Below, piece by piece: positions 3,719 through 64,000 of a stretch of 64,000 nucleotides of DNA. Each line of letters starts with the position of its first letter. Within the stretch, counting starts at the first letter, position 1. The stretch comes from Gammaproteobacteria bacterium (lineage in GTDB: Bacteria; Pseudomonadota; Gammaproteobacteria; Eutrophobiales; Eutrophobiaceae), in the NCBI GenBank assembly GCA_965116585.1, contig OZ220714.1:2396115-2460114 (forward strand). Reading direction: 5' to 3'. A model generated the notes under the pieces. That model worked only from the letters and a program-made list of their open reading frames with translations. It had not been told where the DNA came from and searched no databases. Position numbers and translations under genes: made by a program.

Positions 3719-4594
3719 TTAATCTGTCAGACGCGCCGCGATGGCCTCCCCGAGCCCGGCAGGCGAGCGCACGGTAGTGACGCCGGCGGCGTCCAGGGCG
3801 GCAAATTTGTCCTGTGCGGTGCCCTTGCCGCCCGAGATGATGGCGCCGGCATGGCCCATACGTCGTCCCGGTGGCGCCGTCACACCGGCGATGTAAGCCA
3901 CCACGGGCTTGCTCAGGTGTTGCCCGATAAACGCCGCCGCTTCTTCCTCGGCGCTACCGCCGATCTCACCCACCATGATGATGCCGGTGGTGTCCGCATC
4001 CTGCTCAAACAGGGCCAGACAGTCAATAAAGTTCATGCCGTGCACCGGGTCGCCGCCGATGCCGATACAGGTGCTTTGGCCCAGCCCTGCCAGCGTGGTC
4101 TGGTGCACCGCTTCGTAGGTCAGGGTGCCGGAACGGGAGACGATACCGATGCAGCCGGGCTGGTGGATGTGACCCGGCATGATGCCAATTTTGCATTGCC
4201 CGGGGGTAATGATGCCGGGGCAGTTGGGGCCGATCAGCCTGACACCGGGGCACAGGTCGATACTGGCGCGGGCGCGCACCATGTCGATGATCGGAATGCC
4301 TTCGGTGATGCAAATGATGGTTTTGATCCCGGCCTCGGCCGCCTCGGTAATGGCTTCCGCCGCAAACGCTGCTGGCGCCATGATCATGCTGGCATCCGCC
4401 GCGGTCTCCGCAACCGCTTCCTGGACGGTATCAAATACGGGCCGGTCCAGGTGGGTCTGCCCGCCCCGTCCCGGCGTGACGCCACCGACTACCTGTGTGC
4501 CGTATTCCATGGCCTGTTGCGCGTGGAAAGTGCCCTGGCGGCCGGTGAAACCCTGCACGATCAGCCTTGTATGCTTGTCTACCAGTACCGCCAT
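3719..4594 (-). CDS. sucD: succinyl-CoA synthetase alpha subunit
   Basis: [18 protein letters not shown]... SucD signature. The ORF-track start is TTG at 4684. ATG at 4594..4592 with GGGGAGAG Shine-Dalgarno is the likely true start. Confidence 0.9.
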
Positions 4595-4618
4595 CAGTTC
4601 TCTCCCCGACAAGAGACC

Positions 4619-4770
4619 GCATTCCTCATCATGTGATACGCCCTCACTTGTCTTTGTCCCGCCGGCGGGCACGTGCTCCCTCAACCGTAGCTACGGCTAT
4701 GCTTTCGGTCGCAGGCACCCGCCGGCGGGACAAATCCTGCGCGATCATCGTATCACATGATGAGGAATGC
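4619..4770. repeat. nested-palindrome repeat element, copy 1: outer 22-bp perfect inverted repeat + inner 17-bp stem + conserved core GTGCTCCCTCAACC...GCAGGCACCC
   Basis: Outer IR GCATTCCTCATCATGTGATACG at 4619-4640 and its reverse complement at 4749-4770. Inner stem at 4656-4672 and 4715-4731. Core is shared with the copy at 28252-28359. Confidence 0.8.
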
Positions 4771-5927
4771 GGTCTGACCGCAACAACCTTGTCCGCGGCA
4801 TCACTCAGGCCATCCGCCGAAATAATCTTCAGGCCGCTTTCGTTGAGCAACGCCTTGCCTTCCTCAACCCGCGTGCCTTCCAGTCGCACCACTACCGGAA
4901 GCGTCAGGCCGGTTTCCCGCACCGCGTTGATAATCCCCTCGGCGATCAGGTCGCAGCGCACGATGCCGCCGAAAATATTGACCAGGATCGCTCTTACCCG
5001 GGTGTCGGACATAATCAGTTTGAAGGCTTCCGCCACGCGTTCCGTGGTGGCGCCGCCTCCCACGTCAAGAAAATTCGCCGGTTCGCCGCCGTGCAGCTTG
5101 ATGATGTCCATGGTCGCCATGGCCAGGCCGGCGCCGTTGACCATGCAGGCGATGTCACCGTCCAGTGCAACGTAATTCAGGTCGAACACCTTGGCCTTGT
5201 TTTCCTTCTCATCTTCCTGGCTGGGATCGCGCCAGCTTTCCAGTTCCGCCTGGCGGTACAGGGCATTGTCGTCAACGGCCACCTTGGCGTCCAGGGCCTC
5301 CAGGTCGCCGTCTGCGGTAATGACCAGGGGGTTGATCTCAACCAGGCTGAGGTCCTTGTCCACAAACAAGCGGTACAATCCTGACAGGATTTCAGCCAGT
5401 TGCTTGCCCTGGGCGCCGCTCAGCCCCAGGGCAACGCCCAGCGCCCGGCATTGATATTGCTGCAAGCCCATCACCGGGTCGATGGCAAACGTGAAGATCT
5501 TTTCCGGCTCGGTAGCCGCCACCTCTTCGATGTCCACCCCGCCGGCGGCAGAGGCCATCACCGCAACCCGGCGCTTGCCTCTGTCCACCAGCATGCCCAG
5601 GTAAAGTTCAGAGGCGATATCCGACAAGGAGGACACCAGCACGCAATTCACCGGTTTGCCGTCGGCGCCGGACTGTTTGGTAACCAGGACGCTTCCCAAC
5701 AGGTTGCTCACGTAATCTTCCAGTTCATCCTTGCCGTTGACCAGTCGCACGCCTCCGGCCTTGCCGCGCCCGCCGGCATGGACCTGGGCTTTTACCACCC
5801 AGCTTTTGCCACCCAGTTGCGCCGCGGCAGCCAGCGCGTCCTTGACGGAATGGGCGGGTTGCCCATCCGGCACGGGAATGCCATATTCCGAAAAAAGAAT
5901 TTTTGCCTGGTATTCATGCAGGTTCAT
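4644..5927 (-). CDS. sucC: succinyl-CoA synthetase beta subunit, with a repeat-encoded C-terminal extension
   Basis: [20 protein letters not shown]... ATP-grasp SucC. The canonical C-terminus ...AADKVVAV is followed by about 42 aa ([43 protein letters not shown]) encoded inside the palindromic repeat 4619-4770. Confidence 0.9.
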
Positions 5928-5988: not shown

Positions 5989-6205
5989 TGTGATACGCCT
6001 GTTAATTATTATCTTGTCGCTGGTGTTGTTGATTGCCCTGCTCAAGCGGTTCTTCTCCAAACGACTGCCCGAGCGGGACGAAAAACACATCGCAAAAATG
6101 GTTCAGTGCGATTATTGCCAGACCTACATCCCGCGTAGCTCTGCGATCAAACACGCAGCACGCTACTATTGCTGTGACGAACATAAGGGCACCTCTAAAA
6201 ATTAG
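5989..6205 (+). CDS. small membrane-anchored zinc-ribbon protein (one TM helix + CxxC...CCxxH)
   Basis: GTG start at 5989 gives VIRLLIIILSLVLLIALL...CDYCQTYIP...YYCCDEHKGTSKN. The last 6 codons lie inside a family-(iv) palindrome. Start is uncertain (ORF track begins at 5903). Confidence 0.45.
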
Positions 6206-6214
6206 AGGTTCCTA
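6189..6214. repeat. palindromic repeat, family AGGGCRCCTCTAAAAATTAGAGG
   Basis: aagggcacctctaaaaattagaggttcc supplies KGTSKN-stop to the upstream ORF. The same motif occurs at 8129-8160 (reverse orientation) and at 50353-50376 and 50436-50459. Confidence 0.7.
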
Positions 6215-6274
6215 TAAATCAATGGGGCCAGAGTAACACTTCTTCCGGTCTGTGTTGCAAGGGTGGTTCCTCCC

Positions 6275-6301
6275 GCCCATTCCTGCGCAAGCAGGAATCT
6301 C
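6275..6301. repeat. REP-like hairpin CCCATTCCTGCGCAAGCAGGAATCTC
   Basis: Stem TTCCTGC/GCAGGAA with loop GCAA. Near-identical copies at 33451-33473 (reverse complement), 55231-55250 (reverse complement), 55683-55708 and 55720-55746. Confidence 0.7.
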
Positions 6302-6336
6302 TTCATACAAGCTACCAGTCCCGCCTGCAGGAGATT

Positions 6337-10054: not shown

Positions 10055-11781
10055 GCAGCGGCCTGCTCAAAGTCGTATACAAAGACCGCAGACGGTTGGT
10101 GCTGGCATTGTTTGTCGGCGCTACGCTCGCGGTGGCGGGCCGGGCTTTTTACCTGCAGATTCTGAACAAGGATTTTCTCATCAACGAAGGGAATGCCAGA
10201 GCGGTGCGCAGTGTTACCATCCCCGCCTACCGGGGCATGATCACCGATCGGAACGGCGAACCCATGGGGGTCAGCACGCCGGTGGATTCTGTCTGGGTCG
10301 TGCCCGGAAAAGTACTGGCTTCCGGCGCCGACCTGAAGGAACTGGCCAACCTGCTGGATACGACGGATGCGGTGCTGCGGCAGTCACTCTCAGAGCGGCA
10401 GGACCGGGACTTCTTTTATCTCAAGCGGCATGTGATGCCTGCTACCGCACGCCAGGTACGCGACCTGAAAATACCGGGCATCAACATCGTCAAGGAGTAC
10501 AAGCGCTATTATCCGTTCGGTGAGGTGGCTTCCCACCTGGTCGGATTTACCAATATTGACGACAACGGGCAGGAAGGCATCGAACTGGCTTTTGACGACT
10601 GGTTACGGGGCACGCCGGGGAAGAAAAGGGTATTGAAGGACTTGTACGGTTCGGTCGTCAAGGATATTGAAAACATCAAACAGTCGGTACCCGGTGAAGC
10701 ATTGGTCCTGGCCCTGGACCAGCGCTTGCAGTACCTGGGCTACCGGGAGCTGAGGGCCGCAACGCTCAAGCACAATGCCAAGGGCGGTATGCTGCTGTTG
10801 CTGGACGTCACCACCGGCGAGATCCTGGCGCTGGCGGTACAACCCTCTTTCAATCCCAACAACCGTATCGGTATCAGTGGCACGCACTACCGTAACCGTG
10901 TGGTGACGGACGTGTTCGAACCCGGTTCCACCATCAAACCGTTCACTATCGCGGCGGCGCTGATGTCCGGCCAATACCGCCCCGAGACCATGATCGACAC
11001 GGCGCCGGGACGCCTTTCCATCGGCCGCTACTCGATCAGTGACATCAATAATTACGGCCTGCTGAGCGTGAGCGACGTCATCCGCAAGTCGAGCAACATC
11101 GGCAGCACCAAGGTCGCGCTGTCGTTGGGCGCGGAACCGCTGTGGAAGTTGCACAACGCCGTCGGCTTCGGCAGCCCGACCATGAGCGGCTACCCCGGAG
11201 AGGCGGTGGGCACGCTGGCCGAACCCGGTGACTGGTCCCAGGTCGACCTGGCCGCAGCCTCTTACGGCTACGGCATTTCGGTGACTGCCATGCAGTTGGC
11301 CCAGGCTTATGCGGTGATTGCGTCGGGCGGCCTGTTATACCCGATCAGCTTCCAGAAAGTCAGCGCGCCGCCTGCGGCCCAACGCGTATTGCCGGAAGCC
11401 ATCGCGTTTGAAGTAAATACAATGATGCGTACGGTAGTTGGGGAAGGCGGTAGCGGCAAGCGCGCCGCGGTGGAAGGTTACCACGTTGCCGGCAAGACCG
11501 GCACCGTGCACAAGGCCTCGGCCTCCGGTTACGACGAGGACCGTTACCTGTCGTTGTTTGCCGGCTTTGCTCCGGCCACGGAACCGCGCCTGGTCATGGT
11601 TGTGTTGATCGATGACCCCAGGGCCGGCGATTATTACGGCGGTAAGGTGGCCGCGCCGGTATTCGCCAGTGTCATGCACGGCGCGTTGCGGATATTGAAC
11701 ATCCCGCCCGATAACCTGATCGGGTTAAAACAACGGGCGCTGCTCGCCAACAACAGCGCCCAACTGAGAAATCCGGGCTAG
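10051..11781 (+). CDS. ftsI: peptidoglycan D,D-transpeptidase FtsI (PBP3)
   Basis: 576 aa with STIK, SSN and KTG motifs. Confidence 0.9.
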   Translation: MSSGLLKVVYKDRRRLVLALFVGATLAVAGRAFYLQILNKDFLINEGNARAVRSVTIPAYRGMITDRNGEPMGVSTPVDSVWVVPGKVLASGADLKELANLLDTTDAVLRQSLSERQDRDFFYLKRHVMPATARQVRDLKIPGINIVKEYKRYYPFGEVASHLVGFTNIDDNGQEGIELAFDDWLRGTPGKKRVLKDLYGSVVKDIENIKQSVPGEALVLALDQRLQYLGYRELRAATLKHNAKGGMLLLLDVTTGEILALAVQPSFNPNNRIGISGTHYRNRVVTDVFEPGSTIKPFTIAAALMSGQYRPETMIDTAPGRLSIGRYSISDINNYGLLSVSDVIRKSSNIGSTKVALSLGAEPLWKLHNAVGFGSPTMSGYPGEAVGTLAEPGDWSQVDLAAASYGYGISVTAMQLAQAYAVIASGGLLYPISFQKVSAPPAAQRVLPEAIAFEVNTMMRTVVGEGGSGKRAAVEGYHVAGKTGTVHKASASGYDEDRYLSLFAGFAPATEPRLVMVVLIDDPRAGDYYGGKVAAPVFASVMHGALRILNIPPDNLIGLKQRALLANNSAQLRNPG

Positions 11782-11794
11782 TACCAGGATAATT

Positions 11795-13291
11795 ATGTTG
11801 CCGGCACGCAATCGACACATCGGGATGCCATTGCGAACGCTGCTGCAAGGGATCAGCGACGCCGTGACCGAAGCAGACGTCACGGTGCAGGGGATCAGCG
11901 CCGACAGCCGTAACATCCGAGCCGGTGATGTATTCCTGGCTTGCCGGGGCGCGCAAACCCGCGGCAGCCTGTTCATCCGGGATGCCATCAAGGCAGGGGC
12001 GGCCGCAGTGGTTGTGGACGCGGCCTTGTTGTCCGACCTGGACCGGCGCCTGGCGGTGCTGGTTCCGGTGGCGAACCTGCGTGACAAACTGGGCTTGATC
12101 GCCGGCCGGTTTTACGGAGAACCCACGCGGCAACTGCGCCTGACCGGAGTCACCGGGACCAACGGCAAAACCTCGGTCTGCTGGTGGGCGGCGCAGCTCC
12201 ATTCAGCGCTCACCGGGAAACCGGCGGGTCTGGTCGGCACCCTTGGCTACGGTTGCTTCCCGGAACTGGAAACCGGCGCTAACACGACGCCGGGAGCGCT
12301 TGAACTGCAACGCCTGTGTACCGGTTTTCTCGACGCCGGCGCGGACACGGCGTTTATGGAAGTGTCATCCCATGCCCTGGACCAGGGACGCGTGAACGGC
12401 GTCGATTTCGACCTGGCCGTGTTCACCAACCTGAGCCGGGATCACCTGGACTATCACCACAGCCTGGATGAGTACTTCGAGGCCAAGCAAAAACTGTTCA
12501 GGTTCGAATCATTGCGCGCGGCCGTGGTGAACGGCGATGACGTTTACGGGCGCGCGCTACTGCAAAACCTGCCCGCGCAGGTGGAAGCGATCAGCTATGG
12601 CCTCGCGCCCGGGCCGCGGCAACCGCTGGTGCGCGCAACATTGGCGCCGGGGGCCGAGTTGGTGCTGGATATTACCAGTCCCTGGGGGCGCGGCCAGGTG
12701 CGCCCGGGCGTGACGGGAAAATTCAATGCCGGTAATCTCCTGGCCGTGGTCTCCACCCTGTGCCTGGCGGGACTGCCGCTGGAGCAGGTGCTGGAACAAC
12801 TGGAAAACCTGGCCCCCCCGCCTGGCCGTATGGAGCGTTTCACCCGTGCCGACGGGGCGCGTATCATTGTCGATTACGCGCACACGCCTGCTGCCCTGGA
12901 GCAGGCGCTGCGCGCGCTGCGGGAAGGTTGTGCGGCGCGCCTGATCTGCGTTTTCGGTTGCGGCGGCGAGCGCGACCGGGACAAACGGGCGCTGATGGGA
13001 GAGGTGGCGGAACGCCTCGCCACTGAGGTCATCCTGACCGATGACAACCCGCGCGGCGAACCCGGCGCCGACATCATCGCGGCCATTCTCTCCGGCATGA
13101 GCAAGCAGGCCAGGGTGTGTGTTGAACGCAACCGTTCCAGTGCGATTGAACTTGCCTTGCACGAGGCCGGGCCTGATGACGTGGTGTTGATCGCCGGCAA
13201 AGGCCATGAGACCAGCCAGGACATAGCGGGCCAGCGTTATCCGTTCAGCGATCGGCAACAGGTACGGATGCTGCTGGAGCAAGCGGGGTGA
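11795..13291 (+). CDS. murE: UDP-N-acetylmuramoyl-L-alanyl-D-glutamate--2,6-diaminopimelate ligase
   Basis: Mur ligase with GTNGKT P-loop and DNPR motif. Start could be the internal Met at 11825. Confidence 0.88.
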   Translation: MLPARNRHIGMPLRTLLQGISDAVTEADVTVQGISADSRNIRAGDVFLACRGAQTRGSLFIRDAIKAGAAAVVVDAALLSDLDRRLAVLVPVANLRDKLGLIAGRFYGEPTRQLRLTGVTGTNGKTSVCWWAAQLHSALTGKPAGLVGTLGYGCFPELETGANTTPGALELQRLCTGFLDAGADTAFMEVSSHALDQGRVNGVDFDLAVFTNLSRDHLDYHHSLDEYFEAKQKLFRFESLRAAVVNGDDVYGRALLQNLPAQVEAISYGLAPGPRQPLVRATLAPGAELVLDITSPWGRGQVRPGVTGKFNAGNLLAVVSTLCLAGLPLEQVLEQLENLAPPPGRMERFTRADGARIIVDYAHTPAALEQALRALREGCAARLICVFGCGGERDRDKRALMGEVAERLATEVILTDDNPRGEPGADIIAAILSGMSKQARVCVERNRSSAIELALHEAGPDDVVLIAGKGHETSQDIAGQRYPFSDRQQVRMLLEQAG

Positions 13292-28208: not shown

Positions 28209-28251
28209 TCGTCTGTCCCTTTATTTTTTTCCGCCATTCTGTTTTAATCAG

Positions 28252-28359
28252 CCCTCGCTTGTCTTTTTACCTGCTGCGGGCGCGTGCTCCCTCAACCATA
28301 AGAACCACTACGCTCCCGGTTGCAGGCACCCGCAGCAGGTAAAAATCCGACGCGAGCAT
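28252..28359. repeat. nested-palindrome repeat element, copy 2 (core GTGCTCCCTCAACC...GCAGGCACCC)
   Basis: gccctcgcttgtcttt-[stem cctgctgcgggcgc]-gtgctccctcaaccata...gcaggcaccc-[stem gcagcagg]-aaatccgacgcgagca. The stems differ from copy 1 but stay complementary. Confidence 0.75.
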
Positions 28360-28370
28360 TGCATTACCTG

Positions 28371-31055
28371 ATGAGAACTCTTTTCACGAAAATCTTCGGC
28401 AGCAGGAATGCGCGCGTCCTGAAAAAGATGCACAAGGCGGTCGAGCGCATCAACGCGCTTGAAGCGGACGTTGCCGCGCTGGCGGACGCTGAGTTTCCGC
28501 AACAAACCGCGCAGTTGAAGTCCCGGCTGGAACGCGGTGAAACCCTGGAGGAACTCTTGCCGGAGGCCTTTGCGCTGGTGCGCGAGGCAGGCAGGAGAAC
28601 CCTGAACATGCGCCATTTCGACGTGCAGCTTCTGGGCGGGATCGTCCTGCAGCGCGGCAACATAGCGGAAATGCGCACCGGCGAGGGCAAGACCCTGGTG
28701 GCGACCCTGCCGGCCTATCTCAATGCCCTGGGCGGCGCCGGCGTGCATATCATCACCGTGAACGATTACCTGGCACAACGTGACGCAGAGTGGATGGGCG
28801 CCATCTATACGTTCCTGGGAATGACTACCGGGGTGATTGTGTCCGGCCTGAACAATGAGGAACGCAAGCGCGCCTATGCCGCGGATATCACCTACGGCAC
28901 CAACAATGAATTCGGTTTCGACTACCTGCGCGACAACATGAAGTTCCGCGGGGATGAGCAGGTGCAACGCAGCCTGACGTACGCGATTGTGGATGAGGTG
29001 GATTCGATCCTGATCGATGAAGCGCGTACGCCGCTCATCATCTCCGGCATGGTGGATGACCGCTCCGACCTGTACCTGGCCATGAACAAGATAGTGCCGC
29101 GCCTGACGTTGCAGCAAGAGGAAGACGACGGCGGCGATTACGTACTGGACGAAAAGAGCAAACAGGCTTACCTGACGGAAGCAGGTCACGAACGGGTGGA
29201 AAAGCTGTTGCTGGAGCATAACATCATGCAGCCCGGCATGAGCCTGTACGATTCGGTGAATATCCCCATCCTGCATCACCTGAACGCGGCGCTGCGCGCC
29301 CAGTCCCTGTTCCACAATGACGTGGATTACATCGTCCAGAGTAATGAAGTGGTTATCGTCGATGAGTTCACCGGCAGGACGATGCCGGGGCGGCGCTGGT
29401 CCGACGGCCTGCACCAGGCCATCGAGGCCAAGGAAAACGTGACCATCCAGAATGAGAACCAGACCCTGGCGACCATCACCTACCAGAATTACTTCCGCCT
29501 CTATGAAAAGCTGGCCGGCATGACCGGCACTGCGGACACCGAGGCCTATGAGTTTCAGCAGATCTACGGCCTGGAAGTGGTGGTGGCGCCGACCCACCTG
29601 CCCATGATCAGGGATGACCAGGCGGACATGATCTACCTGAGCGCCCGCGAGAAATTCAACGCCATCATTGATGATATCAAGACCTGTAAGGAGAGCGGCC
29701 AGCCGGTGCTGGTGGGCACCGTATCCATTGAAGTATCGGAATACCTGTCCGGCCAGTTGAAAAAACAGAAGATCAAACACCAGGTACTGAATGCCAAGTA
29801 CCATGAAAAAGAAGCCGAGATCATTGCCCAGGCCGGAAGCCCGGGCGCGGTGACGATCGCGACGAACATGGCCGGACGCGGCACCGACATCGTGCTGGGC
29901 GGAAACCTGGACGCGGAGATCAAGGCCCTGGAAGACGTTGACGCCGACACGCTGGAGCAGGTCAGGGCAGCCTGGCAGACGCGCCATGATCAGGTGATCA
30001 GTGTCGGCGGGTTGCGTATCATCGGCACCGAGCGGCATGAATCCAGACGTATCGACAACCAGTTGCGGGGCCGGTCGGGACGCCAGGGCGACCCGGGCTC
30101 GAGCCGCTTCTACATTTCCCTGGAAGATGACCTGATGCGTATTTTCGCATCGGAACGGGTGTCATCCATCATGCAACGGCTGGGAATGGAAGAGGGGGAG
30201 GCCATCGAATCCAACCTGGTTACCAAGGCGATAGAAAACGCGCAACGGAAAGTGGAAGCCCACAACTTCGATATCCGCAAGCACCTGCTGGAATATGACG
30301 ACGTTGCCAACGATCAGCGCAAGGTGATTTATGAATGGCGTAACGAACTGCTGGGTGGCGATGATGTAGCCACGGATATCCACAGCATGCGGGAGGACGT
30401 CATCAAGGGTATTTTTGCAACCCATATTCCTCCCGACAGCCTGGATGAGATGTGGAATGTGAGCGGATTGACGGACGCCCTGGGTAATGAACTGAGCGTG
30501 CACCTGCCCGTGCAGGAGTGGCTGGAACAGGATGCCACCCTGGCTGAGGAGGCCTTGCTGAACAAGGTGCTGGAAAGCGTTACCGCTGAGGTGAAGAACA
30601 GGCATGCCGAACTGCCGGAGGAGCTGGTGCGCCGGGTGGAAAAGAGCCTGATGCTGGATACGCTGGACCGTCACTGGAAGGAACATCTGGTTGCCATGGA
30701 TCATTTGCGCCAGGGCATCGGACTGCGTGGCTATGCAGCCAGGAACCCCAAGCAGGAATACAAGAAGGAAGCATTCGCCATGTTCAGCGACATGCTGGAA
30801 AACATCAAATATGACGTCGTTACCCTGCTCGCAAAGATACAGATCAGGGAAGAGCAGGACGCGCAACTGTTGCCGCGCCGTTCCCAACCCGCGGCCATGC
30901 AGTACAATCACCCCGACGCGCCCAGCGCCATGGGCACACCGGAGGAGGCCCCGCAACAAAAGCCGTTTATCCGCAATCAAAGAAAGATCGGCCGCAACGA
31001 ACCCTGTCCCTGCGGGTCCGGGAAGAAATACAAACTCTGTCATGGCAAGCTGTAG
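28371..31055 (+). CDS. secA: preprotein translocase ATPase SecA
   Basis: [21 protein letters not shown]-terminus. C-terminal [15 protein letters not shown] zinc finger. Confidence 0.95.
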
Positions 31056-33422: not shown

Positions 33423-33450
33423 CCCGATCGTAAGGAGCCGCCATCAGGAG

Positions 33451-33473
33451 CTTCCTGCTTGCGCAGGAATGGG
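33451..33473. repeat. REP-like hairpin (reverse complement of CCCATTCCTGCGCAAGCAGGAA), between convergent genes
   Basis: cttcctgcttgcgcaggaatggg. Likely a bidirectional terminator or REP. Confidence 0.6.
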
Positions 33474-33477
33474 CGAG

Positions 33478-41552: not shown

Positions 41553-41627
41553 TTTTAACCCGCATATCTCACCAAGTCGCTTGTTGCAATCTGAAACTTC
41601 GCACCACTTGGTGAGATATGCGGGTTA
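41553..41627. repeat. 23-bp perfect inverted repeat (TTAACCCGCATATCTCACCAAGT) with 29-nt loop, in the rluD/degS divergent region
   Basis: Arms at 41553-41575 and 41605-41627. Followed by about five ATCTGT-like direct repeats with roughly 10-bp period, up to the degS ATG. Confidence 0.6.
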
Positions 41628-41719
41628 AGGGAACTCTGCATCCGCTGTGGCAAAAAAAATTCTGTGTTAATCTGTATCATCTGTGGATATCATTTATCCG
41701 TGTTATCTGTAGCTGTATT

Positions 41720-42838
41720 ATGTCTGTGGGCAGTAATGTGAAATTCTTTATCCAGTCTGTTGTTCTCGGTTTGGCCGGCGCCTTTGTTCTGTTGTATTTC
41801 TTCCCCGGCCTGTATTCTTATCAGAATGGCGCGCTTGCCGGGCGTGGCGGGGAAGGTGTTGCTTCCTACAGCAAGGCGGTGACGGCAGTGGCGCCGGCGG
41901 TGGTGAACGTTTATGCCACACAGATCCACCGGCAGACTATCCACCCCCTGTTCCGGGATCCGTTATTCCGGCGGTTTTTCGGTCCCCGCGTGCCGAGTGA
42001 ACGGCGTGACAGCAATCTTGGTTCCGGCGTGATCATGGATGACCGGGGTTACCTGCTGACCAATGCCCACGTCATCAATAACGCTGATGAAATTCTCATT
42101 ACCCTGTATGACGGGCGCCAGTCGCGGGCGCAGGTGGTAGGTATAGACCCGGATACCGACCTTGCCGTACTTAAAACGAACCTGGGCGACCTGCATAGCG
42201 CACCGTATGGTGACACCGGCCGGATAAGGGTGGGAGACGTCGTCCTGGCCATAGGGAACCCCTATGATTTCGGCCAGACGGTTACCCAGGGCATTATCAG
42301 CGCGACGGGGCGTAACCGGGTGGGTATTACCACGTTTGAGAATTTCATCCAGACCGACGCCGATATCAATCCCGGCAACTCAGGCGGCGCGCTGGTCTCG
42401 GCAACGGGGGAACTGCTGGGCATTAATACCGCCATCATTTCCAGCAGTGGCGGCTCGCAGGGTATCGGTCTGGCCATACCGGTAGAACTGGCCCTGGATG
42501 TAATGCGTCAAATCATTGAACACGGACACGTGATCCGTGGCTGGATCGGTATCGAAGCCCAGATTATCTCGCAGGACATGATCGACACGATTGGGCTGGA
42601 TCAGGGCGGAGTGCTGATCGTGGCCGTGCTCAATGGAAGCCCTGCCGCTAACGCCGGGATTGTGCCCGGCGACATCATGATTAGTATCGATGGCCAGCCC
42701 CTGTACAACCCGCAGTATGCCATCAACCTGATCTCCCAGGTTAAACCGGGCACTGTAATCAAGGCAGAAATCCTGCGTGGATGGAACACAGGGACGGTTA
42801 CCCTGCAGGTTGCAGAACGTCCTTCCTTCAGACGCTGA
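41720..42838 (+). CDS. Do/HtrA-family serine endopeptidase, DegS/AlgW-like (one PDZ domain)
   Basis: N-terminal TM; trypsin-like domain GNSGGAL; single PDZ. ATG at 41720 chosen. Confidence 0.85.
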   Translation: MSVGSNVKFFIQSVVLGLAGAFVLLYFFPGLYSYQNGALAGRGGEGVASYSKAVTAVAPAVVNVYATQIHRQTIHPLFRDPLFRRFFGPRVPSERRDSNLGSGVIMDDRGYLLTNAHVINNADEILITLYDGRQSRAQVVGIDPDTDLAVLKTNLGDLHSAPYGDTGRIRVGDVVLAIGNPYDFGQTVTQGIISATGRNRVGITTFENFIQTDADINPGNSGGALVSATGELLGINTAIISSSGGSQGIGLAIPVELALDVMRQIIEHGHVIRGWIGIEAQIISQDMIDTIGLDQGGVLIVAVLNGSPAANAGIVPGDIMISIDGQPLYNPQYAINLISQVKPGTVIKAEILRGWNTGTVTLQVAERPSFRR

Positions 42839-44313: not shown

Positions 44314-44960
44314 TCCCGTATGGCCGCGGCCAGGCGGTTTATGAACGGTTTGATTTGCTCCCGTTTCATCTTCATGGAGGCTTTGTTCACGATGAGGCGG
44401 GAACTGATATACGCGATGTTTTCGAGTGGCGCCAGGCCGTTTTCTTTCAGGGTGTTGCCGGTATCGACCAGATCGACTATCAGGTCCGACAGGCCCAGTA
44501 CGGGAGCCAGTTCCATGGAGCCGTATAACTTGATAATTTCCACCTGTTGCCCTTTTTCGGCAAAATAGTTGCGTGTTGTCGTGACGTACTTGGTGGCGAT
44601 GCGTAAGCGGCCCGATTGCGCCGGCGCGTTGTTGGGTCCGGCCAGCATCAGGCGGCAACGGCCTATTTTCAAATCCAGCGGTTCGTACAGGTTATCGCTC
44701 ACGCATTCCATCAGCACGTCCTTCCCGGCAATGCCGAGATCAGCGCCGCCGTTGAGCACGTATGTCGGCACATCGGTTGCCCGGATCACGATCAGCCGCA
44801 GCCCGGGCCGGTTGGTCTCAAACACGAGCTTGCGGGTGGCGCCGGGGTCATCCAGAGGTTGCACCCCGGCGCGCGCGAGCAGAGGCAGCGCCTCCTCCAG
44901 GATGCGCCCCTTGGAAACGGCAATGGTTATTCTGTCTTTGTCAGTCTGTTCCAATTCCAA
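44310..44960 (-). CDS. hisG: ATP phosphoribosyltransferase, short form
   Basis: 216 aa; TTG start at 44960. Confidence 0.85.
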
Positions 44961-44963
44961 ACA

Positions 44964-44990
44964 CCCAATTCCTAATTCTTAATTCGTAAT
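44964..44990. repeat. solo heptamer-array TIR (cccaattcctaattcttaattcgtaat), MITE-family fragment F
   Basis: Only one arm present. Lies in the 35-bp gap between the murA stop and the hisG start. Confidence 0.5.
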
Positions 44991-47253: not shown

Positions 47254-47331
47254 TCATAGCTGCGTAAATCTGCGTTATCTGCGGACAAATACCGAATCTT
47301 TCATCTGCGTAAATCTGCGTTATCTGCGGAC
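47254..47331. repeat. 47-bp-period tandem duplication (2 copies) with a perfect 27-bp core CTGCGTAAATCTGCGTTATCTGCGGAC
   Basis: Copy 2 (47305-47331) encodes the MMPL C-terminus ...SADNADLRR-stop. Copy 1 (47260-47286) is intergenic, upstream of mlaC. Confidence 0.8.
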
Positions 47332-49948: not shown

Positions 49949-50377
49949 ATGCATAAACTGATCTTCTTCATACTGGCTGCTTGCGCGTTGTCCGTTTCCG
50001 CCCAGCAGCGGACCCCGGCGCCTGAGAATGCCGAACTGTATTTTATCTCACTCGCTGACGGCGCGAGCGTGTCCAATCCGGTCAATGTCCGCTTCGGTCT
50101 CAGAAACATGGGAGTCGCTCCCGCCGGTATCAAGTACGACAACAGCGGCCACCATCACCTGCTGGTAAACACGGAATTGCCCTCCCTTGACTTTCCCATC
50201 ATTAACGATGAAAACCACCTGCACTTCGGTGGCGGTCAAACGGAAGTTAGCCTGGAACTTCCCCCGGGAGAGCACACCTTGCAACTCCTGCTGGGCGATT
50301 TTGCCCACATCCCCCACGCACCGGCCGTGATGTCGGAGCGTATTACGATAACGGTCAAGGGCGCCTCTAAAAATTAG
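49949..50377 (+). CDS. secreted DUF4399-family protein
   Basis: Signal peptide; HHHLL...HLHFGGGQTE motif region. The last 6 codons (KGASKN) lie inside the family-(iv) palindrome. Confidence 0.7.
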   Translation: MHKLIFFILAACALSVSAQQRTPAPENAELYFISLADGASVSNPVNVRFGLRNMGVAPAGIKYDNSGHHHLLVNTELPSLDFPIINDENHLHFGGGQTEVSLELPPGEHTLQLLLGDFAHIPHAPAVMSERITITVKGASKN

Positions 50378-50459
50378 AGGTTGTTTTAAAGGAACCTCTA
50401 ATAATGCCAGCATATCCCTATGCTGCACGGGCGCCTCTAATTTTTAGAGGCGCCCTTAA
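50353..50459. repeat. 107-bp element bounded by 24-bp inverted copies of AAGGGCGCCTCTAAAAATTAGAGG
   Basis: Left arm 50353-50376. Right arm 50436-50459 is a perfect reverse complement and itself a 12-bp-stem hairpin. Lies between convergent DUF4399 and purN. Confidence 0.75.
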
Positions 50460-50487
50460 GTAATACCGTGTCGCCGCCGGCGCCTTG

Positions 50488-53249: not shown

Positions 53250-55109
53250 CTAAATCACCAGCTTGCGCAGTTTCCTGCCGCCGTAGATCAGGTTGATGAT
53301 GCTCCGGGTCACCATGATCGCGGTGAACATGGAGCAGACTATTCCCAGGGACAGAGTTACGGCAAAGCCCTTGATCGGTCCGGTGCCGAAACTGAACAGC
53401 ACGATCGCGGCAAACAAGGTGGTGATGTTGGCGTCGGCAATAGTCGTGAACGCTTTTTCATAGCCGGCATGAATGCTGGCCTGGGGCGAGTTGCCGTTCA
53501 TGATCTCCTCGCGGATGCGCTGAAAAATAAGTACGTTGGCATCCACCGCCATGCCCACGGTGAGCACGATGCCGGCGATACCCGGCAAGGTGAGGGTGGC
53601 TTGCAGCAGCGACAACAAGGCAATGATCAGTACCAGGTTCAAGGCCAGGGCCACGTCCGCGGCCAGGCCGAAAGCTTTGTACCAGAGCGCCATAAAGACC
53701 AATACCAGGACAAACCCGATCTTCACCGACATAAAACCCTTGTCGATATTGTCCTGGCCCAGGCTGGGACCTACCGTGCGTTCTTCAATGATTTCAATGG
53801 GCGCCGCCAGCGCGCCGGCACGCAGCAGCAGGGCCAGGTTGCGGGCTTCTTCGGTGGAATCCAGGCCGGTGATCTGGAAGCGTTTGCCCAGTTGCTCGCG
53901 GATCGTGGCCACGTTGATCACTTCTTCGATGGTTTCCCTGCGTTTTTTCATTGCGCCGTCCACTTCAACGGTTTCCGCCTTGTTCTCGATAAATACTACC
54001 GCCATGTTCCTGCCTACTTCCTCGGCAGTGGCATCGCTGAAGCGCTTTGCGCCCTTGCCGTCCAGGGTAATGGAAACGTTGGGGCTGCCGGAGGCAGAGT
54101 CGAAACCCGATGCGGCGTCAATGATGTAGTCCCCGGTGAGCATGACCTGTTTCTTTAACAGCACCGGGTTGCCCCCCCGGTCGTAATACAGCCGGGACCC
54201 TGCCGGTGTGCGGCCATCCAGCGCATCCTGCGCGGAGTTTTCCTCGTCGGTCATGCGAAATTCCAGCGTTGCAGTGGCGCCCAGGATGGTTTTTGCACGG
54301 GCGGTATCCTGTACTCCGGGCAACTGCACGACTACCCGTTCCAACCCCTGTTGCTGGATGATCGGCTCAGCCACACCCAGTTCGTTCACCCGCTTGCGCA
54401 AGGTGGTGATATTCTGTTGCAAGGCCAGGCGCCGGGTCTCCTTCACGGCGTCCTCGGTTATCCGGGCTAACAGGGGAAATTCGTCATTCTCGGCTGCCGG
54501 TTGCTCAAGCTCCAGGTCGGGGAAGTTGCCTTCTATCTCGGTAATGCCCAAACGGCGTTGCTCGGCATCCCGAAACCGGATCAGCAGACCCCCATCCCGG
54601 CGCCGGGTGATAGTCTTGTAACGCACCCGCTCATCCCGCAACTGCGTCCTGATGTCCGAGACGTAACGTTCTTCCGCCTTGACCACCGCCGCCTCCATGT
54701 CCACTTCCATCAGGAAATGCACACCACCGCGCAGGTCCAGCCCCAGGAACATGGGTTCAGCACCGAATGCGCGCAACCAGTCCGGTGTGGCCGGCGCCAG
54801 GTTCAGGGCCACGGTGTAGGAACGTCCCAGCGCTTCCTTCACTGTGTCCTGGGCCTTGAGCTGGGTTTCCTCATCCTGGAACCTGACCACCAGGTTTCCC
54901 TCGGCCACGGTGATCGCGCCGTAGGTGATAGCTGCCTGGTCCAGGGCATCCTCCACGGCATAGCGGGTAATTTCACTGACCTCTGCCCCGCGCGCCGCGG
55001 ATACCTGCAAGGCCGGGTCCTTGCCATAGATATTGGGTAATGCGTACAGACAGCCGATCGCAATGATGACGATGATCAGCAGGTGTTTCCAGAGCGGGTA
55101 ACGGTTCAT
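53250..55109 (-). CDS. secD: protein translocase subunit SecD
   Basis: 619 aa. Confidence 0.9.
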   Translation of the reverse strand: MNRYPLWKHLLIIVIIAIGCLYALPNIYGKDPALQVSAARGAEVSEITRYAVEDALDQAAITYGAITVAEGNLVVRFQDEETQLKAQDTVKEALGRSYTVALNLAPATPDWLRAFGAEPMFLGLDLRGGVHFLMEVDMEAAVVKAEERYVSDIRTQLRDERVRYKTITRRRDGGLLIRFRDAEQRRLGITEIEGNFPDLELEQPAAENDEFPLLARITEDAVKETRRLALQQNITTLRKRVNELGVAEPIIQQQGLERVVVQLPGVQDTARAKTILGATATLEFRMTDEENSAQDALDGRTPAGSRLYYDRGGNPVLLKKQVMLTGDYIIDAASGFDSASGSPNVSITLDGKGAKRFSDATAEEVGRNMAVVFIENKAETVEVDGAMKKRRETIEEVINVATIREQLGKRFQITGLDSTEEARNLALLLRAGALAAPIEIIEERTVGPSLGQDNIDKGFMSVKIGFVLVLVFMALWYKAFGLAADVALALNLVLIIALLSLLQATLTLPGIAGIVLTVGMAVDANVLIFQRIREEIMNGNSPQASIHAGYEKAFTTIADANITTLFAAIVLFSFGTGPIKGFAVTLSLGIVCSMFTAIMVTRSIINLIYGGRKLRKLVI

Positions 55110-55110
55110 G

Positions 55111-55147
55111 AATCAAGAATTAAGAATTGGGAATCAGGAATTGGTAG
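55111..55147. repeat. solo heptamer array (aatcaag aattaag aattggg aatcagg aattgg), MITE-family fragment E, 2 bp upstream of the secD start
   Basis: No matching right arm found. Confidence 0.5.
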
Positions 55148-55230
55148 TGGTGCAGCCCCCCGGTCCATTCCCATGAAAACGGGGACCCGGTAGCCAACCA
55201 AACTCCTTATAAAGAATGTTTTCTCACTGG

Positions 55231-55682: not shown

Positions 55683-55746
55683 CCATTCCCGCACAAGCAG
55701 GAATCTCCGTGATACCGGATCCATTGCTGCGGAAGCAGGAATCTCC
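55683..55746. repeat. two tandem REP-like hairpins (gccattcccgcacaagcaggaatctcc and tccattgctgcggaagcaggaatctcc) downstream of msrB
   Basis: Same family as 6275, 33451 and 55231. Confidence 0.6.
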
Positions 55747-55789
55747 TGATAAAGACCCTTGCCTCCGCAGGAGTGGTTCTCTCCGGCAG

Positions 55790-60684: not shown

Positions 60685-63600
60685 ATGCCTTACAAAGTCG
60701 AAACTATGTTGATGGGAGGGGATGCGCCTAATGACACCTCGACAGAACTTTGCTTCAATCCGCCCAATGGGCCGTTCGAGGGCAACGAGGTAACGGGCAC
60801 CATCACCACAAGGGGCGATGAAGACTGGATTGCCATAGAACTCAGTGAGGGCAAGGAATACACCATTACCGTGGCTACCAGGCATACCATGGATGCTGAC
60901 GATACAGTCGATTCTGATGAGGATGGTACGGATGATAACGATCGGGACGCTGGCGGCCTCAACGACTCCGTCCTGAAGTTGCTGGATGGCAAGGGTGGCG
61001 TGATCGACATGAACGACGATATCGACGCGGCAAAGGGCATGCTGAATTCGGAGTTGAAGTTTACGCCTGAGGCAGGCAGCGGTACGCAGAAGTATTACAT
61101 CAGCGTCAGTGGCTACACGGGCAACCCGGGCGCCAATAATACCGGTGGTTACACAGTCTCAGTGTCAGAGAAGGCTGTGTTGGCGGTTGGTTCGGGTGTG
61201 GGCATACCGGGCACCGACAATGCTGACAAGCTTTTCGGTACTGACCTGTCAGAATCCATTACAGGTATGGGCGGCGATGACACCATAGACGGCATGGGCG
61301 GCGATGACACCATAGACGGCGGTGACGGCAACGACCTGCTTATCGGCGGCAAGGGCGCTGACAAGCTGACGGGTGGTGATGGGGACATGGACACCATAAG
61401 CTACCGTGGTTCCGTAGCAGGCGTGACCATCAACTTGTCTGACGGCACGGCCAGGGGTGGCGATGCTGAGGGCGATACGATTAGCGATGATATTGAGAAC
61501 GTCATAGGTTCCGAACATGACGACATGCTGACCGGCAACAGGGCAGTCAACAGTCTCTGGGGCCTGGGCGGCAATGATGAACTCGACGGTGGTCGCAGAA
61601 ATGACAAGCTGTACGGCGGCGCTGGCGATGACATGCTGGACGGCGGCGCCGGCAATGATACGCTGGAAGGCGGTTACGGCGCCGACATGCTGACCGGTGG
61701 CGAGGGCGATGATACTGCCTCCTACAGCATGTCCATGATGGGCGTCACGGTGCGCCTGCACAGTGGCCAGGCCATGGGCGGTGACGCCGAAGGCGACACC
61801 TGGAACCTGTCTGTTCCCCAAACGTATACCAACGGTGATGAAGAAGAGGTTGAAGTAAACCTTGCCGATATCATAAACCTGACCGGTTCGGCCAATGACG
61901 ACATCCTGGCGGGCGACATGAGGGACAACATCATCATGGGCGGCGCCGGCAACGACAGGATTTACGGTGGCCCGAACCCGGCTGATGCGGACACGGAGTC
62001 GGATGCAGGCCTTAGCAATGCCGACACCCTGCACGGTGACGGCGGCGACGACAGGATCTTCGGCGGCATCGGCGGCGATATCCTCAGGGGCGGCGCCGGG
62101 GATGACATGCTGCATGGCGGTCCGGGTAATGACACGTTCTGGGGTGGCCACGGTAGCGACATGATCTACGCCGATGCTATGGATACCCACATTTATGGCA
62201 ATCGCCCGGATAATACCGAGCCGGACGGTACCGTGATTGACCCTGCTACTGCTGACGTTGACGAAAGCATGGAAATGGAAGGCGATGTCGACACCGTTTC
62301 CTATGCGAGGCTGGAAGAGGGAATAACCAGGACACTTGGTAGTGATGGAACGGGCAGTGCAGATGCGACTGATGGTACTAATATTCTCATTATGGGAATT
62401 GAAAACATTATCGGCACCCAAGGTGATGACACTATTACCGGCGATACCGGTGCTAACGTTATCGAAGGTGGTGAAGGCGGTGATGACCTTGACGGCGGAG
62501 ATGGAATCGATACCCTTTCTTATGAAAGTTCCGACGACTGGGTCAGAGTAACACTGAATGGCGCTAGCGCGGCGACTACCTCCAGGGGGCATGCTTCAGG
62601 CGATGAGGCCGAGAATTTCGAAAACCTCACAGGGTCTGCTTATGATGACGACCTGACCGGTGATGATGTGGCGGCTGGGAATGTGATCAAGGGTCTGGCC
62701 GGCGATGATGATATCGAAGGCATGGGCGGCAACGACACAATAGAAGGTGGCGCCGGCGCCGATGAGTTGGACGGCGGTTACACTCCTGTTAATGCTGCGG
62801 GTACTGATGCGGGTACTAGTCCGGCTGATGATGGTAATAGGAATTTCGAAGCGAACACCTTGTCCTATGCAAATTCAGACGCGGGTGTCACGGTGAACCT
62901 GGCGACTGCCAGTGCTTCCGGCGGCCATGCTACGGGCGATACCATTGCGACTTACGAAGAGCTTTCTCCCACGACCGAGGATCCGGACAACGAGGTTGAC
63001 GTTGCTACGTTTGCGCACGTCGTCGGGTCCATGTACGGTGACCGGCTGACCGGTGACAAACAAGACAACCACCTGACCGGTGGCGGTGGTGATGACACCC
63101 TCAGGAGTGGAGCCGGCGCCGACCGCGTTATAGGCGGCCCCGGTGCGGACGTGCTCGACGGTGGCGAGGACATGGGTGAAAAGAACGATATGGTCCCGAA
63201 CCCTGCATTTGATGCCACACTGGATGAAAGTGATGCTAATCCCAGAATGGTCGCCGCTTCCGTGGACTGGGCAGTCTACAAGCACGCGGCGGCGGGCGTC
63301 ACGGTGGACCTGTCAACCGGCATGGGCACCGGCGGTGAGGCCATGGGCGATACTTTGATGAACATTGAGTTGATCTGGGGTTCCGAACATGCCGACACCT
63401 TCATAGCCAGTTCCGGAGCCGATACCATCGAAGGTGACGGCGGCAGCGATACCGTCTCCTACGAGGCCTCGTCAATGGGCGTCACGGTCAACCTGGGTGA
63501 AAGCACTCAGCACAGGATAGCGACAGCCACTGGCACAGGCACCGAGGCCGACCCGTTTGTATTCCCTGTAGACGATCCGGCTACGGTCGTTCGGCCTACG

Positions 63601-64000
63601 GCTGGTGTGCCCAGATTGGACGCAATGGGTAATCCATTCGTTGATGGTACTAACGTTGAGCATGAGGACGACAACCCGAATGCCAATGGCGCTGCGGGTG
63701 ACAGGCTGGGCAGTATCGAGAACCTGACCGGTTCCAACCAGAAGGACATGCTGACCGGCGATGCCAACCCCAACGTCCTCAAGGGCATGGGCGGCGATGA
63801 TACGCTGAGCGGTGGCACTGGTGGCGAAGATAAGCTCTATGGTGGAGACGGTGATGATATGCTGACCGGCTCTGGTAGCGATGGTGACATGCTGGATGGC
63901 GGAGCAGGCGATGATACGATCATCGGCAGCACTGGTGATGATACGATCACCGGCGGCGCCGGCGATGACGACCTGAGCGGCGGCACTGGCAATGATACAT
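60685..64000 (+). CDS. giant RTX (hemolysin-type calcium-binding GGxGxDxUx repeat) protein, N-terminal PPC-like domain; 3' end beyond window
   Basis: Hand translation from ATG 60685 is open for 1105 codons to the window end. N-terminus has G.I..RGDEDWIAIELSEGKEYTITV...DSVLKLLDGKG...YYISVSGY (pre-peptidase C-terminal-like), then dozens of GG[AD]G[ND]D nonapeptides. Not in the ORF track because no stop occurs in the window. Confidence 0.85.
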   Translation, partial: MPYKVETMLMGGDAPNDTSTELCFNPPNGPFEGNEVTGTITTRGDEDWIAIELSEGKEYTITVATRHTMDADDTVDSDEDGTDDNDRDAGGLNDSVLKLLDGKGGVIDMNDDIDAAKGMLNSELKFTPEAGSGTQKYYISVSGYTGNPGANNTGGYTVSVSEKAVLAVGSGVGIPGTDNADKLFGTDLSESITGMGGDDTIDGMGGDDTIDGGDGNDLLIGGKGADKLTGGDGDMDTISYRGSVAGVTINLSDGTARGGDAEGDTISDDIENVIGSEHDDMLTGNRAVNSLWGLGGNDELDGGRRNDKLYGGAGDDMLDGGAGNDTLEGGYGADMLTGGEGDDTASYSMSMMGVTVRLHSGQAMGGDAEGDTWNLSVPQTYTNGDEEEVEVNLADIINLTGSANDDILAGDMRDNIIMGGAGNDRIYGGPNPADADTESDAGLSNADTLHGDGGDDRIFGGIGGDILRGGAGDDMLHGGPGNDTFWGGHGSDMIYADAMDTHIYGNRPDNTEPDGTVIDPATADVDESMEMEGDVDTVSYARLEEGITRTLGSDGTGSADATDGTNILIMGIENIIGTQGDDTITGDTGANVIEGGEGGDDLDGGDGIDTLSYESSDDWVRVTLNGASAATTSRGHASGDEAENFENLTGSAYDDDLTGDDVAAGNVIKGLAGDDDIEGMGGNDTIEGGAGADELDGGYTPVNAAGTDAGTSPADDGNRNFEANTLSYANSDAGVTVNLATASASGGHATGDTIATYEELSPTTEDPDNEVDVATFAHVVGSMYGDRLTGDKQDNHLTGGGGDDTLRSGAGADRVIGGPGADVLDGGEDMGEKNDMVPNPAFDATLDESDANPRMVAASVDWAVYKHAAAGVTVDLSTGMGTGGEAMGDTLMNIELIWGSEHADTFIASSGADTIEGDGGSDTVSYEASSMGVTVNLGESTQHRIATATGTGTEADPFVFPVDDPATVVRPTAGVPRLDAMGNPFVDGTNVEHEDDNPNANGAAGDRLGSIENLTGSNQKDMLTGDANPNVLKGMGGDDTLSGGTGGEDKLYGGDGDDMLTGSGSDGDMLDGGAGDDTIIGSTGDDTITGGAGDDDLSGGTGNDT

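Follow-up and report, generated by a model that had tools for sequence, protein, structure and literature searches.

Two nested palindromes lie in a 64-kb stretch of contig OZ220714.1 from a gammaproteobacterium (64,000 nucleotides, referred to below as the window), one at the sucC/sucD junction and the other upstream of secA. Sequence comparison makes it very probable that both are copies of a single non-coding miniature inverted-repeat transposable element (MITE) bearing IS1380-type ends. This type was assigned, in preference to the IS630/Correia type, because the ends match those of metagenome elements that encode IS1380-family transposases. The family is previously undescribed: no description of its end sequences was found in the searchable literature, nor any paper linking those ends to a MITE. 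The kind of element is ordinary, and the family is notable mainly for the strict complementarity of its arms. The features of the two loci, in window coordinates, are as follows.

4612-4777, plus strand: copy 1, a short-form MITE of 164 bp from TA to TA, with one mismatch between its ends; covariance-model score 148 bits
4616-4773: copy 1, the element proper, 158 bp; the target positions are degenerate (4612-4615 AGAG, 4774-4777 CTGA)
4614-4640: copy 1, left arm of the terminal inverted repeat, AGACCGCATTCCTCATCATGTGATACG, 27 nt, 100% complementary to 4749-4775
4749-4775: copy 1, right arm of the terminal inverted repeat, pairing with 4614-4640
4653-4669: copy 1, left arm of the inner stem, TTTGTCCCGCCGGCGGG, which holds a hypervariable 9-bp segment
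4718-4734: copy 1, right arm of the inner stem, CCCGCCGGCGGGACAAA; the 17-bp stem is perfect
4670-4717, plus strand: copy 1, conserved asymmetric core, CACGTGCTCCCTCAACC-hairpin-GCTTTCGGTCGCAGGCAC, with a small apical hairpin; the motif is common to a related family of ~181 bp described below
4644-5927, minus strand: sucC open reading frame (ORF), of which the last 43 codons (4644-4775, TGA stop at 4644-4646) are element-encoded
3719-4594, minus strand: sucD, 291 aa, with its own ribosome-binding site GGGGAGAG kept
28251-28366, plus strand: copy 2, an interior MITE fragment with neither terminal repeat present; 118 bits
28264-28280: copy 2, left arm of the inner stem, TTTTTACCTGCTGCGGG
28329-28345: copy 2, right arm of the inner stem, CCCGCAGCAGGTAAAAA, with 17/17 positions paired with the left arm
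28371-31055, plus strand: secA, whose ATG lies where the right-truncated element meets the native secA 5' end

The genome-wide search for copies proposed in the initial annotation was carried out on 185,579 species-representative genomes with the pattern GTGCTCCCTCAACC-N(15-35)-GCAGGCACCC. The hits were 56 loci, together holding 58 further MITE copies, in about ten metagenome-assembled genomes (MAGs) labelled Gammaproteobacteria, the window not being among the resulting loci. The two palindromes are therefore, as the initial annotation had suggested, members of a repeat family and not chance occurrences, the further copies being what its own check called for. One of the MAGs belongs to Candidatus Azotimanducaceae (order Pseudomonadales), and up to 18 copies matching the exact pattern are present in the richest single genome. 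Due to the requirement for an exact match, these copy counts are lower bounds. A covariance model built from 56 copies recognized 65 forward-strand copies in 63 sources. Matches scored about 150 bits in the forward direction, against about 50 bits for their palindromic echo on the opposite strand, so that the MITE has a definable polarity. No similarity between the MITE and plasmid DNA was found.

In column profiles anchored on the core, conservation begins and ends abruptly at the boundaries of the element. When the right end of each copy was reverse-complemented and looked for in the same copy, a long form of 245 bp (~44 copies) could be separated from a short form of 164 bp (6 copies, including copy 1 of the window), both measured from TA to TA; smaller deletion derivatives also exist. 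The extra sequence of the long form is a poorly conserved block of ~81 bp between the left end and GATGCG. An integration host factor (IHF) site was considered in this block and dropped, the strict consensus being present in just 6 of the 44 long copies. Both size classes have the termini 5'-CCCGSATTTCTCACCA...TGGTGAGAAATSCGGG-3' and terminal inverted repeats of 24-27 bp with 0-6 mismatches per copy, their common ends being TA-R-CCCGSATTTCTCACCAG...CTGGTGAGAAATSCGGG-Y-TA. The core is conserved and asymmetric (GCTCC.TCRAC, a small hairpin, then TCGGTCGC). Small (<~300 bp), non-coding, multi-copy and dispersed, the element has the properties by which bacterial MITEs are recognized.

The MITE arrived by insertion, which follows from its terminal inverted repeats, its duplicated YTAR targets and the occurrence of filled and empty sites. 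Among the 51 bounded copies, the left TA is preceded by a pyrimidine in 43 and the right TA is followed by a purine in 45, TA itself being found at 83 of the 102 ends. The four bases outside CCCG...CGGG were compared for the 33 intact copies. Left and right 4-mers are the same in 18 of these (permutation p = 2e-4), the identical pairs being CTAG (nine copies), TTAA (five) and the non-palindromic CTAA (four). Apparently, then, YTAR tetranucleotides are the targets of the MITE and are duplicated on insertion. Comparison of the flanks among the loci and the window gave four filled/empty pairs, to which the empty sites at sucC/sucD described below are additional. L052 is filled (GGTGAC-TAA[...]CTA-ATGG) and L053 empty; L018 versus L046 and L041 versus L012 (a single TTAG) are further pairs; and at the murE/murF junction L047 is filled, while L016 and the window (13264-13282) are empty. 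The initial annotation had favored a folded RNA as opposed to an insertion, but this contrast fails in the face of the terminal repeats, the YTAR duplications, the filled and empty sites and the near-identical IS1380-type ends.

One pair of loci looks at first like a shared insertion. At the rplF/rplR junction, L018 (5565-5912) and L046 (3101-3347), from two species, have a copy at exactly the same position and in the same orientation. Their core and ends are ~90% identical, and their ~81-bp blocks only ~45%. Conservation in situ was considered for this pair and rejected, the long-form blocks being from different subfamilies; judging from these identities, independent insertions at one hot spot are more likely.

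The link to IS1380-family insertion sequences (ISs) comes from a metagenome scan with the end pattern (short form of the end motif, CCCGSATTTCTCACC) and following bases that were chosen to exclude the MITE's own interior. At least 120 metagenome loci, from many environments, match the end pattern (L063-L182 are metagenome loci; a separate set of 62 host-genome loci totals ~0.53 Mb). Among the matches listed, 12 candidates have paired ends 1.67-1.97 kb apart, and 10 of the 12 carry an ORF of 448-488 aa. Of five ORFs tested, four were identified as transposases of the IS1380 family (PF13701, E = 1e-149 to 1e-157); the three of these scanned against NCBIfam all hit NF033539 with 394-414 bits (cutoff 180). 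What the MITE and the full-length ISs have in common is the terminal 19-21 nt only, at 95-100% identity. The flanks of the full-length ISs are CTAG/CTAG in four cases and TTAG/TTAG in one (L109), in agreement with the target and duplication type of the MITE (CTAG, TTAA, CTAA). Similarly, in a cultured organism, an annotated IS1380-family IS on the Rhizobium leguminosarum plasmid NZ_CP071629.1 has TTAG/TTAG flanks and ends (CCCGAATCTCTCA.../...TGTGAGAAATGCGGG) that are similar, not identical, to those of the MITE. The element would accordingly be moved in trans by an IS1380-family DDE transposase.

A MITE family of ~181 bp, whose ends are the same and whose core (..GCTCCTCGAC-hairpin-..CTCGGTCGCG) is homologous, was also seen in the metagenomes; examples are L094 4769-4950, L096 680-860 and L127 3168-3349. 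It is widespread (sediment, wetland, hypersaline, sludge and groundwater metagenomes) and has the layout of the window family, with conserved blocks split by a variable paired stem. Given the same ends and the homologous core, the window family appears to be one branch of a larger group.

Several observations weigh against a MITE with IS1380-type ends and a 4-bp duplication. In 28 of the 33 intact copies, the bases next to TA at the two ends are complementary to each other, and about 12 mismatched flank pairs (our count) are better explained by TA plus an extra base of the repeat; on these flanks, a 2-bp (TA) duplication is not fully separable from a 4-bp (YTAR) one. By tblastn, no IS1380-family transposase was detected in the window and the 62 genome loci (~0.53 Mb), and a search of the genome loci for an autonomous copy gave no pairs of terminal inverted repeats 1-2 kb apart. 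Similarity to the full-length ISs stops at the ends and does not reach into the interior of the MITE; the MITE is therefore not their simple deletion derivative. Moreover, why an internal hairpin should be conserved is not readily explained by a classical double-strand cut-and-paste DDE mechanism. Finally, the site of copy 1, TCAG, is non-canonical, and no clean duplication is seen in the flank towards sucD.

Copy 1 was inserted inside the 3' end of sucC, six codons upstream of the ancestral stop, and not after sucC as first annotated; the ORF runs 43 codons into the element. SucC is 427 aa here and 389 aa in relatives, where it ends in ...AVSRGEN*. A 43-residue tail takes the place of SRGEN, the Ligase_CoA domain ending at residue 382 of 427. 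Four relatives (L057-L060, SucD 92-95% identical) have the empty site, with uninterrupted ...GCGGTCAGCCGGGGAGAGAACTGATGG. In these relatives the sucC TGA overlaps the sucD ATG (TGATG), whereas in the window the MITE separates sucC from sucD. From this comparison, copy 1 appears to have given SucC a new C-terminus and to have broken the coupling of sucC and sucD. The outer repeat of copy 1 is perfect, as had been noted, but it is 27 bp long (4614-4640/4749-4775) and not 22 bp.

For copy 2, homology of flanks and core with copy 1 had been reported and was confirmed, except that the left flank TTCTGTTTTAATCA is not part of the element; it was tried as a decayed terminal repeat and rejected, since it is native sequence kept in relatives. 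The native flanks of copy 2 (upstream TTCTGTTTTAATCAGCCC, downstream CAC(G/C)TGAT...) are conserved in L061 and L062. On the right, similarity to the MITE extends to ~28366-28376 and does not stop about 12 bp before the secA ATG, as had been thought. At the ATG (28371), the element, truncated on its right (..CACCTGATGAGAA), passes into the native start of secA (CACGTGATCAAAACT), an arrangement consistent with a microhomology-mediated deletion. Relatives use a GTG start, one codon earlier than the ATG of the window. The sequence over the ATG had been compared with the outer arm of copy 1, but the native secA 5' end of the relatives (CACGTGATCAAAACTG, versus TACCTGATGAGAACTC in the window) would explain it at least as well as the element.

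In L061 an independent long MITE copy lies 14 nt upstream of the secA GTG. In L062 (2355-2475) an unrelated, near-perfect palindrome of ~125 bp (CCCGCGCGTGTATGTGTGCATGGGGTCAGGTCGCACAATGCACAC...) was observed at the same spot, and the intergenic site upstream of secA thus seems to gain palindromic DNA repeatedly. Because L061 and L062 hold different sequences there, the spot is an insertion hot spot and not a conserved leader. The proposal of a secA leader is further weakened by the lack of ends in copy 2, which, judged from these alignments, is an immobile fossil in the 5' untranslated region of secA, fused to native DNA on both sides.

A scan for the MITE ends alone revealed two additional fragments in the window.

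41555-41628: mini copy, a 66-bp element (41559-41624) with perfect TTAA/TTAA flanks
11766-11781, plus strand: solo end remnant, GAGAAATCCGGGCTAG, i.e. GAGAAATCCGGG + CTAG; 16 nt at the ftsI/murE junction

The mini copy is internally deleted, consisting of both ends and the first ~20 nt of the long-form module, and is found between a rluD-like gene (minus strand) and a gene for a DegS/HtrA-like protease (plus strand). The first ATG (41618-41620) of the mechanically listed protease ORF (41618-42838) falls inside the right end of the mini copy, and for this reason the true start is probably further downstream. The solo end supplies the ftsI stop codon (TAG, 11779-11781). L016 has a full MITE copy at the same ftsI/murE junction.

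Out of the 51 bounded copies, 50 lie between called ORFs, the exception being L029, which is spanned by a mechanically called ORF, and most are -10 to +25 nt from the neighboring ORFs. In 13 cases the stop codon of the neighboring gene is the TAR of the duplicated YTAR, and several copies split stop/start overlaps (TAATG) in operons (rplF/rplR, ftsI/murE, murE/murF). Since YTAR contains TAA and TAG, YTAR targeting combined with selection against gene disruption would concentrate the surviving copies at gene ends and stop/start overlaps, the target duplication rebuilding the stop at one flank and the start context at the opposite flank. Relative to co-directional genes, the orientation of the element is 18 versus 16, with 10 divergent and 4 convergent contexts in addition. 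On both strands a T-run precedes the stem and an A-run follows it, so that neither transcript contains a terminator-like hairpin followed by a U-run. A scan for promoters or terminators inside the MITE gave nothing above chance, and no intrinsic terminator was recognized. The MITE may be tolerated within operons because neither strand gives a hairpin and then a U-run.

The two copies of the window are 77% identical without gaps over 125 nt (81% mean column identity). Both are predicted to fold strongly as RNA (copy 1, -118.7 kcal/mol, z = -15.8; copy 2, -58 kcal/mol, z = -6.5), and copy 1 also as single-stranded DNA (z = -12). No gathering-score match to Rfam was found in the window, and none at E <= 1 on the elements in three loci. 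The claim in the initial annotation that the 17-bp inner stems differ and remain self-complementary was correct, both stems being perfect with compensated changes, and the compensation is seen across 56 copies of the family. RNAalifold predicted 35 pairs from these copies, 20 of the pairs with double changes. Paired cells amount to 97.6% (87.9% after shuffling) and double-change cells to 167 (40.7 after shuffling), values that none of the 500 shuffles reached; when the partner was slid by 1-3 columns, the number of pairs with double changes did not exceed 9, nor the share of paired cells 48%. For the variable 9-bp segment of the inner stem there are 43 haplotypes in the 56 copies, 29 of them perfectly paired, with a mean pairwise identity of 0.605, compared with 0.892 for the other interior columns outside the search pattern. 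Many of the stem changes are transversion pairs (GC to CG, GC to UA), for which a wobble intermediate is impossible. Among rare alleles (<=2 copies), nine are double and paired, versus ~0.24 expected if the two sides were independent (our estimate, 0.0126 squared x 27 pairs x 56 sequences). By our count, the 12 stem variants with a single mismatch comprise, on the plus strand, three G.U, six A.C and three transversion mismatches; three G.U against six A.C gives no strand signal.

The terminal repeats co-vary as well, variants in L025, L029, L048 and copy 1 of the window being mirrored in the other arm. The MITE is a long imperfect palindrome, and its arms might be kept complementary by the need for a hairpin or cruciform in propagation; alternatively, the arms might repair each other by intrastrand templating. 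In copy 1 the perfect repeat extends 2 nt into the expected target DNA, which hints at arm-to-arm templated repair. The covariation of the arms is real and unusually clean; what causes it is a question of wider interest.

Other structured sequences were observed within copies of relatives. Small mobile elements of ~70-75 nt, e.g., GTTCATTGCGCCCATCCCTGGGCGCAACCCTGCGGGCGGCTGTCGCCGTGCAAATTGTCTGTCCTGACAATTTGTC, are nested inside MITE copies (L008 4609-4683; L049 7250-7330 and 7350-7430; L021, L041 and L050), and a different block of ~70 nt is found in the right arm in L007, L010, L039 and L061.

How much the structure itself does can be read in more than one way. It is doubtful, though worth keeping in view, that the core and the paired variable stems form a structure-specific cis element recognized as folded DNA (cruciform or hairpin) or RNA, in which case IS1380/piggyBac-related transposases or a host factor would have to recognize the folded form. 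This reading rests on the core and stems being common to the window family and the ~181-bp family, and if correct it would mean a widespread class of structure-dependent MITEs that are not passive carriers of two transposase-binding ends. In a weaker variant, the hairpin would have been co-opted at operon junctions, as a signal for mRNA processing or insulation. A structured cis-regulatory RNA or small RNA, serving as a strand-specific 3'-end, leader or processing signal at sucCD and secA, could account for the strong covariation, the very stable RNA folds and the polarity of the element (~150 versus ~50 bits), and effects on mRNA stability have been reported for the related MITEs ERIC and Correia (PMC2229807). 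Such a strand-specific role is nevertheless unlikely, given that the element occurs in both orientations (18 versus 16 co-directional, with 10 divergent and 4 convergent contexts) and that no Rfam match was obtained at gathering scores or E <= 1. The neighboring genes are also unrelated to one another, the G.U and A.C intermediates are free of strand bias, three relatives have three different sequences upstream of secA, and the terminal repeats, target duplications and empty sites show transposition.

Transposition by another route has to be weighed too. An IS630/Tc1-mariner-type MITE (RUP/Correia-like), with only TA duplicated within CTAG, was our first hypothesis, based on the TA ends and YTAR flanks: TA is typical of the termini of bacterial MITEs (PMC2229807), it occurs here at 83 of 102 ends, preceded by Y and followed by R, and the adjoining base is complementary in 28 of 33 copies. 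It was ruled out by the IS1380 ends and the 4-bp duplications, and we consider it very improbable. The ends match IS1380-family ISs (95-100% over 19-21 nt) and not IS630; non-palindromic duplications of 4 bp are seen in CTAA/CTAA (four copies) and in TTAG/TTAG of L109 and the Rhizobium IS, with TTAA/TTAA at the mini copy; and the full-length partners are 1.65-1.8 kb with transposases of 450-480 aa, unlike IS630 elements, which are ~1.1 kb. Equally slight is the probability of a REP/REPIN-like (repetitive extragenic palindromic) element that travels in the form of a single-stranded hairpin, with mobilization by a tyrosine (HUH) transposase of the REP-associated tyrosine transposase (RAYT) or IS200/IS605 type. 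The conserved blocks around a spacer visibly constrained by pairing alone would suit such an element, compensation of this kind having been described for REPINs (PMC3116915), as would the nine compensated double changes in rare alleles against ~0.24 expected. The MITE has, however, target duplications and long terminal inverted repeats, and its ends match a DDE transposon family. IS200/IS605-type elements are not known to have either target duplications or long terminal inverted repeats. No RAYT turned up, although no search was aimed at one. That the palindromes are a chance pair, or what is left of one old, decaying duplication in this genome, is scarcely credible: the window does contain only two copies with an interior, but the model has 65 forward-strand matches in 63 sources, the family is present in about ten genomes and the two folds have z-scores of -15.8 and -6.5.

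A MITE with IS1380-type ends has parallels in several known systems. The closest in layout are the Correia/NEMIS elements of Neisseria, which are non-coding, have terminal inverted repeats of ~24-26 bp with TA termini, come in two sizes differing by an internal block (107 versus 155 bp; 164 versus 245 bp for the MITE), yield a transcript that is one long hairpin, and lie within transcription units, where the short form can be read through and gives gene fusions (PMC2229807). They differ in their unrelated end sequence and host clade, the MITE having IS1380-type ends and an apparent 4-bp YTAR duplication; as for the IHF site, it has the strict consensus in only 6 of 44 long copies of the MITE. 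RUP of Streptococcus pneumoniae was likewise assigned to its family via the terminal repeats of a full-length IS (IS630-Spn1) and its target preference (PMC2229807), but the partner of the window MITE is IS1380 and not IS630, and the MITE is larger, with a highly structured and conserved interior. ERIC/IRU of enterobacteria is an imperfect palindrome of ~127 bp with longer variants, found in transcribed intergenic regions near gene ends in both orientations, and its RNA hairpin can alter mRNA stability (PMC2229807). It has no sequence similarity to the MITE, and its terminal repeats are much shorter (7 bp contiguous).

With REPINs, the MITE shares conserved end blocks, a middle constrained by pairing, common compensatory changes and persistent populations within genomes (PMC3116915). 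The resemblance is one of behavior only, by analogy, the window MITE having DDE-type ends and target duplications. REPINs are linked to tyrosine (HUH) transposases and are not known to have target duplications. IS1380-family ISs have 19-21 bp ends starting with CCCG that are identical or nearly so to those of the MITE, and short duplications of the YTAR type; the MITE encodes nothing and has only the ends in common with them. Members of the family are ~1.67 kb with short duplications, for example IS1247 (1672 bp), the duplication of which is reported to be 5 bp (PMC3281130), in contrast to the apparent 4 bp in the MITE. Eukaryotic piggyBac elements, a more distant relative in this comparison with the MITE and the IS1380-family ISs, are flanked by conserved TTAA, and IS1380 transposases have been used as the prokaryotic outgroup of piggyBac transposases (PMC10813416).

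A single mechanism would account for both palindromes and the two further fragments in the window, and the annotation is corrected at two essential loci: SucC has a 43-residue element tail with the translational coupling of sucC and sucD broken, and the secA start is a fossil junction. YTAR targeting that regenerates stop codons suggests how a transposon can sit in packed operons (rplF-rplR, ftsI-murE, murE-murF, sucC-sucD) without destroying them. The compensated arm changes are a clean natural data set on whether hairpins in mobile DNA are kept by selection or by templated repair. Masking the family in uncultured symbiont-like gammaproteobacteria would avoid false ORF extensions and assembly breaks.

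The window contains other repeats, unrelated to the MITE. Intergenic arrays of the heptamers AATTAGG/AATTAAG form inverted pairs around spacers of ~70-90 bp (7161-7204/7275-7317, 26724-26754/26833-26875, 32267-32338/32404-32448, 44942-44990, 49807-49853/49877-49913 and 55098-55158); from their arrangement, they look like a second, unrelated family of hairpin-forming repeats. Small palindromic repeats were found as AAGGGCGCCTCTAAAAATTAGAGG (6181-6218, 50357-50390 and 50427-50460) and CCATTCCTGCGCAAGCAGGAATCTC (6274-6307, 33443-33475 and 55683-55751), and a small tandem repeat as CTGCGTAAATCTGCGTTATCTGCGGAC (47260-47331 and 41662-41688). Finally, a long run of 27-nt repeats, encoding nonapeptides of the GGxGxD type, occupies 61237-64000 and runs off the end of the window; such repeats are typical of a putative RTX-like calcium-binding repeat protein.

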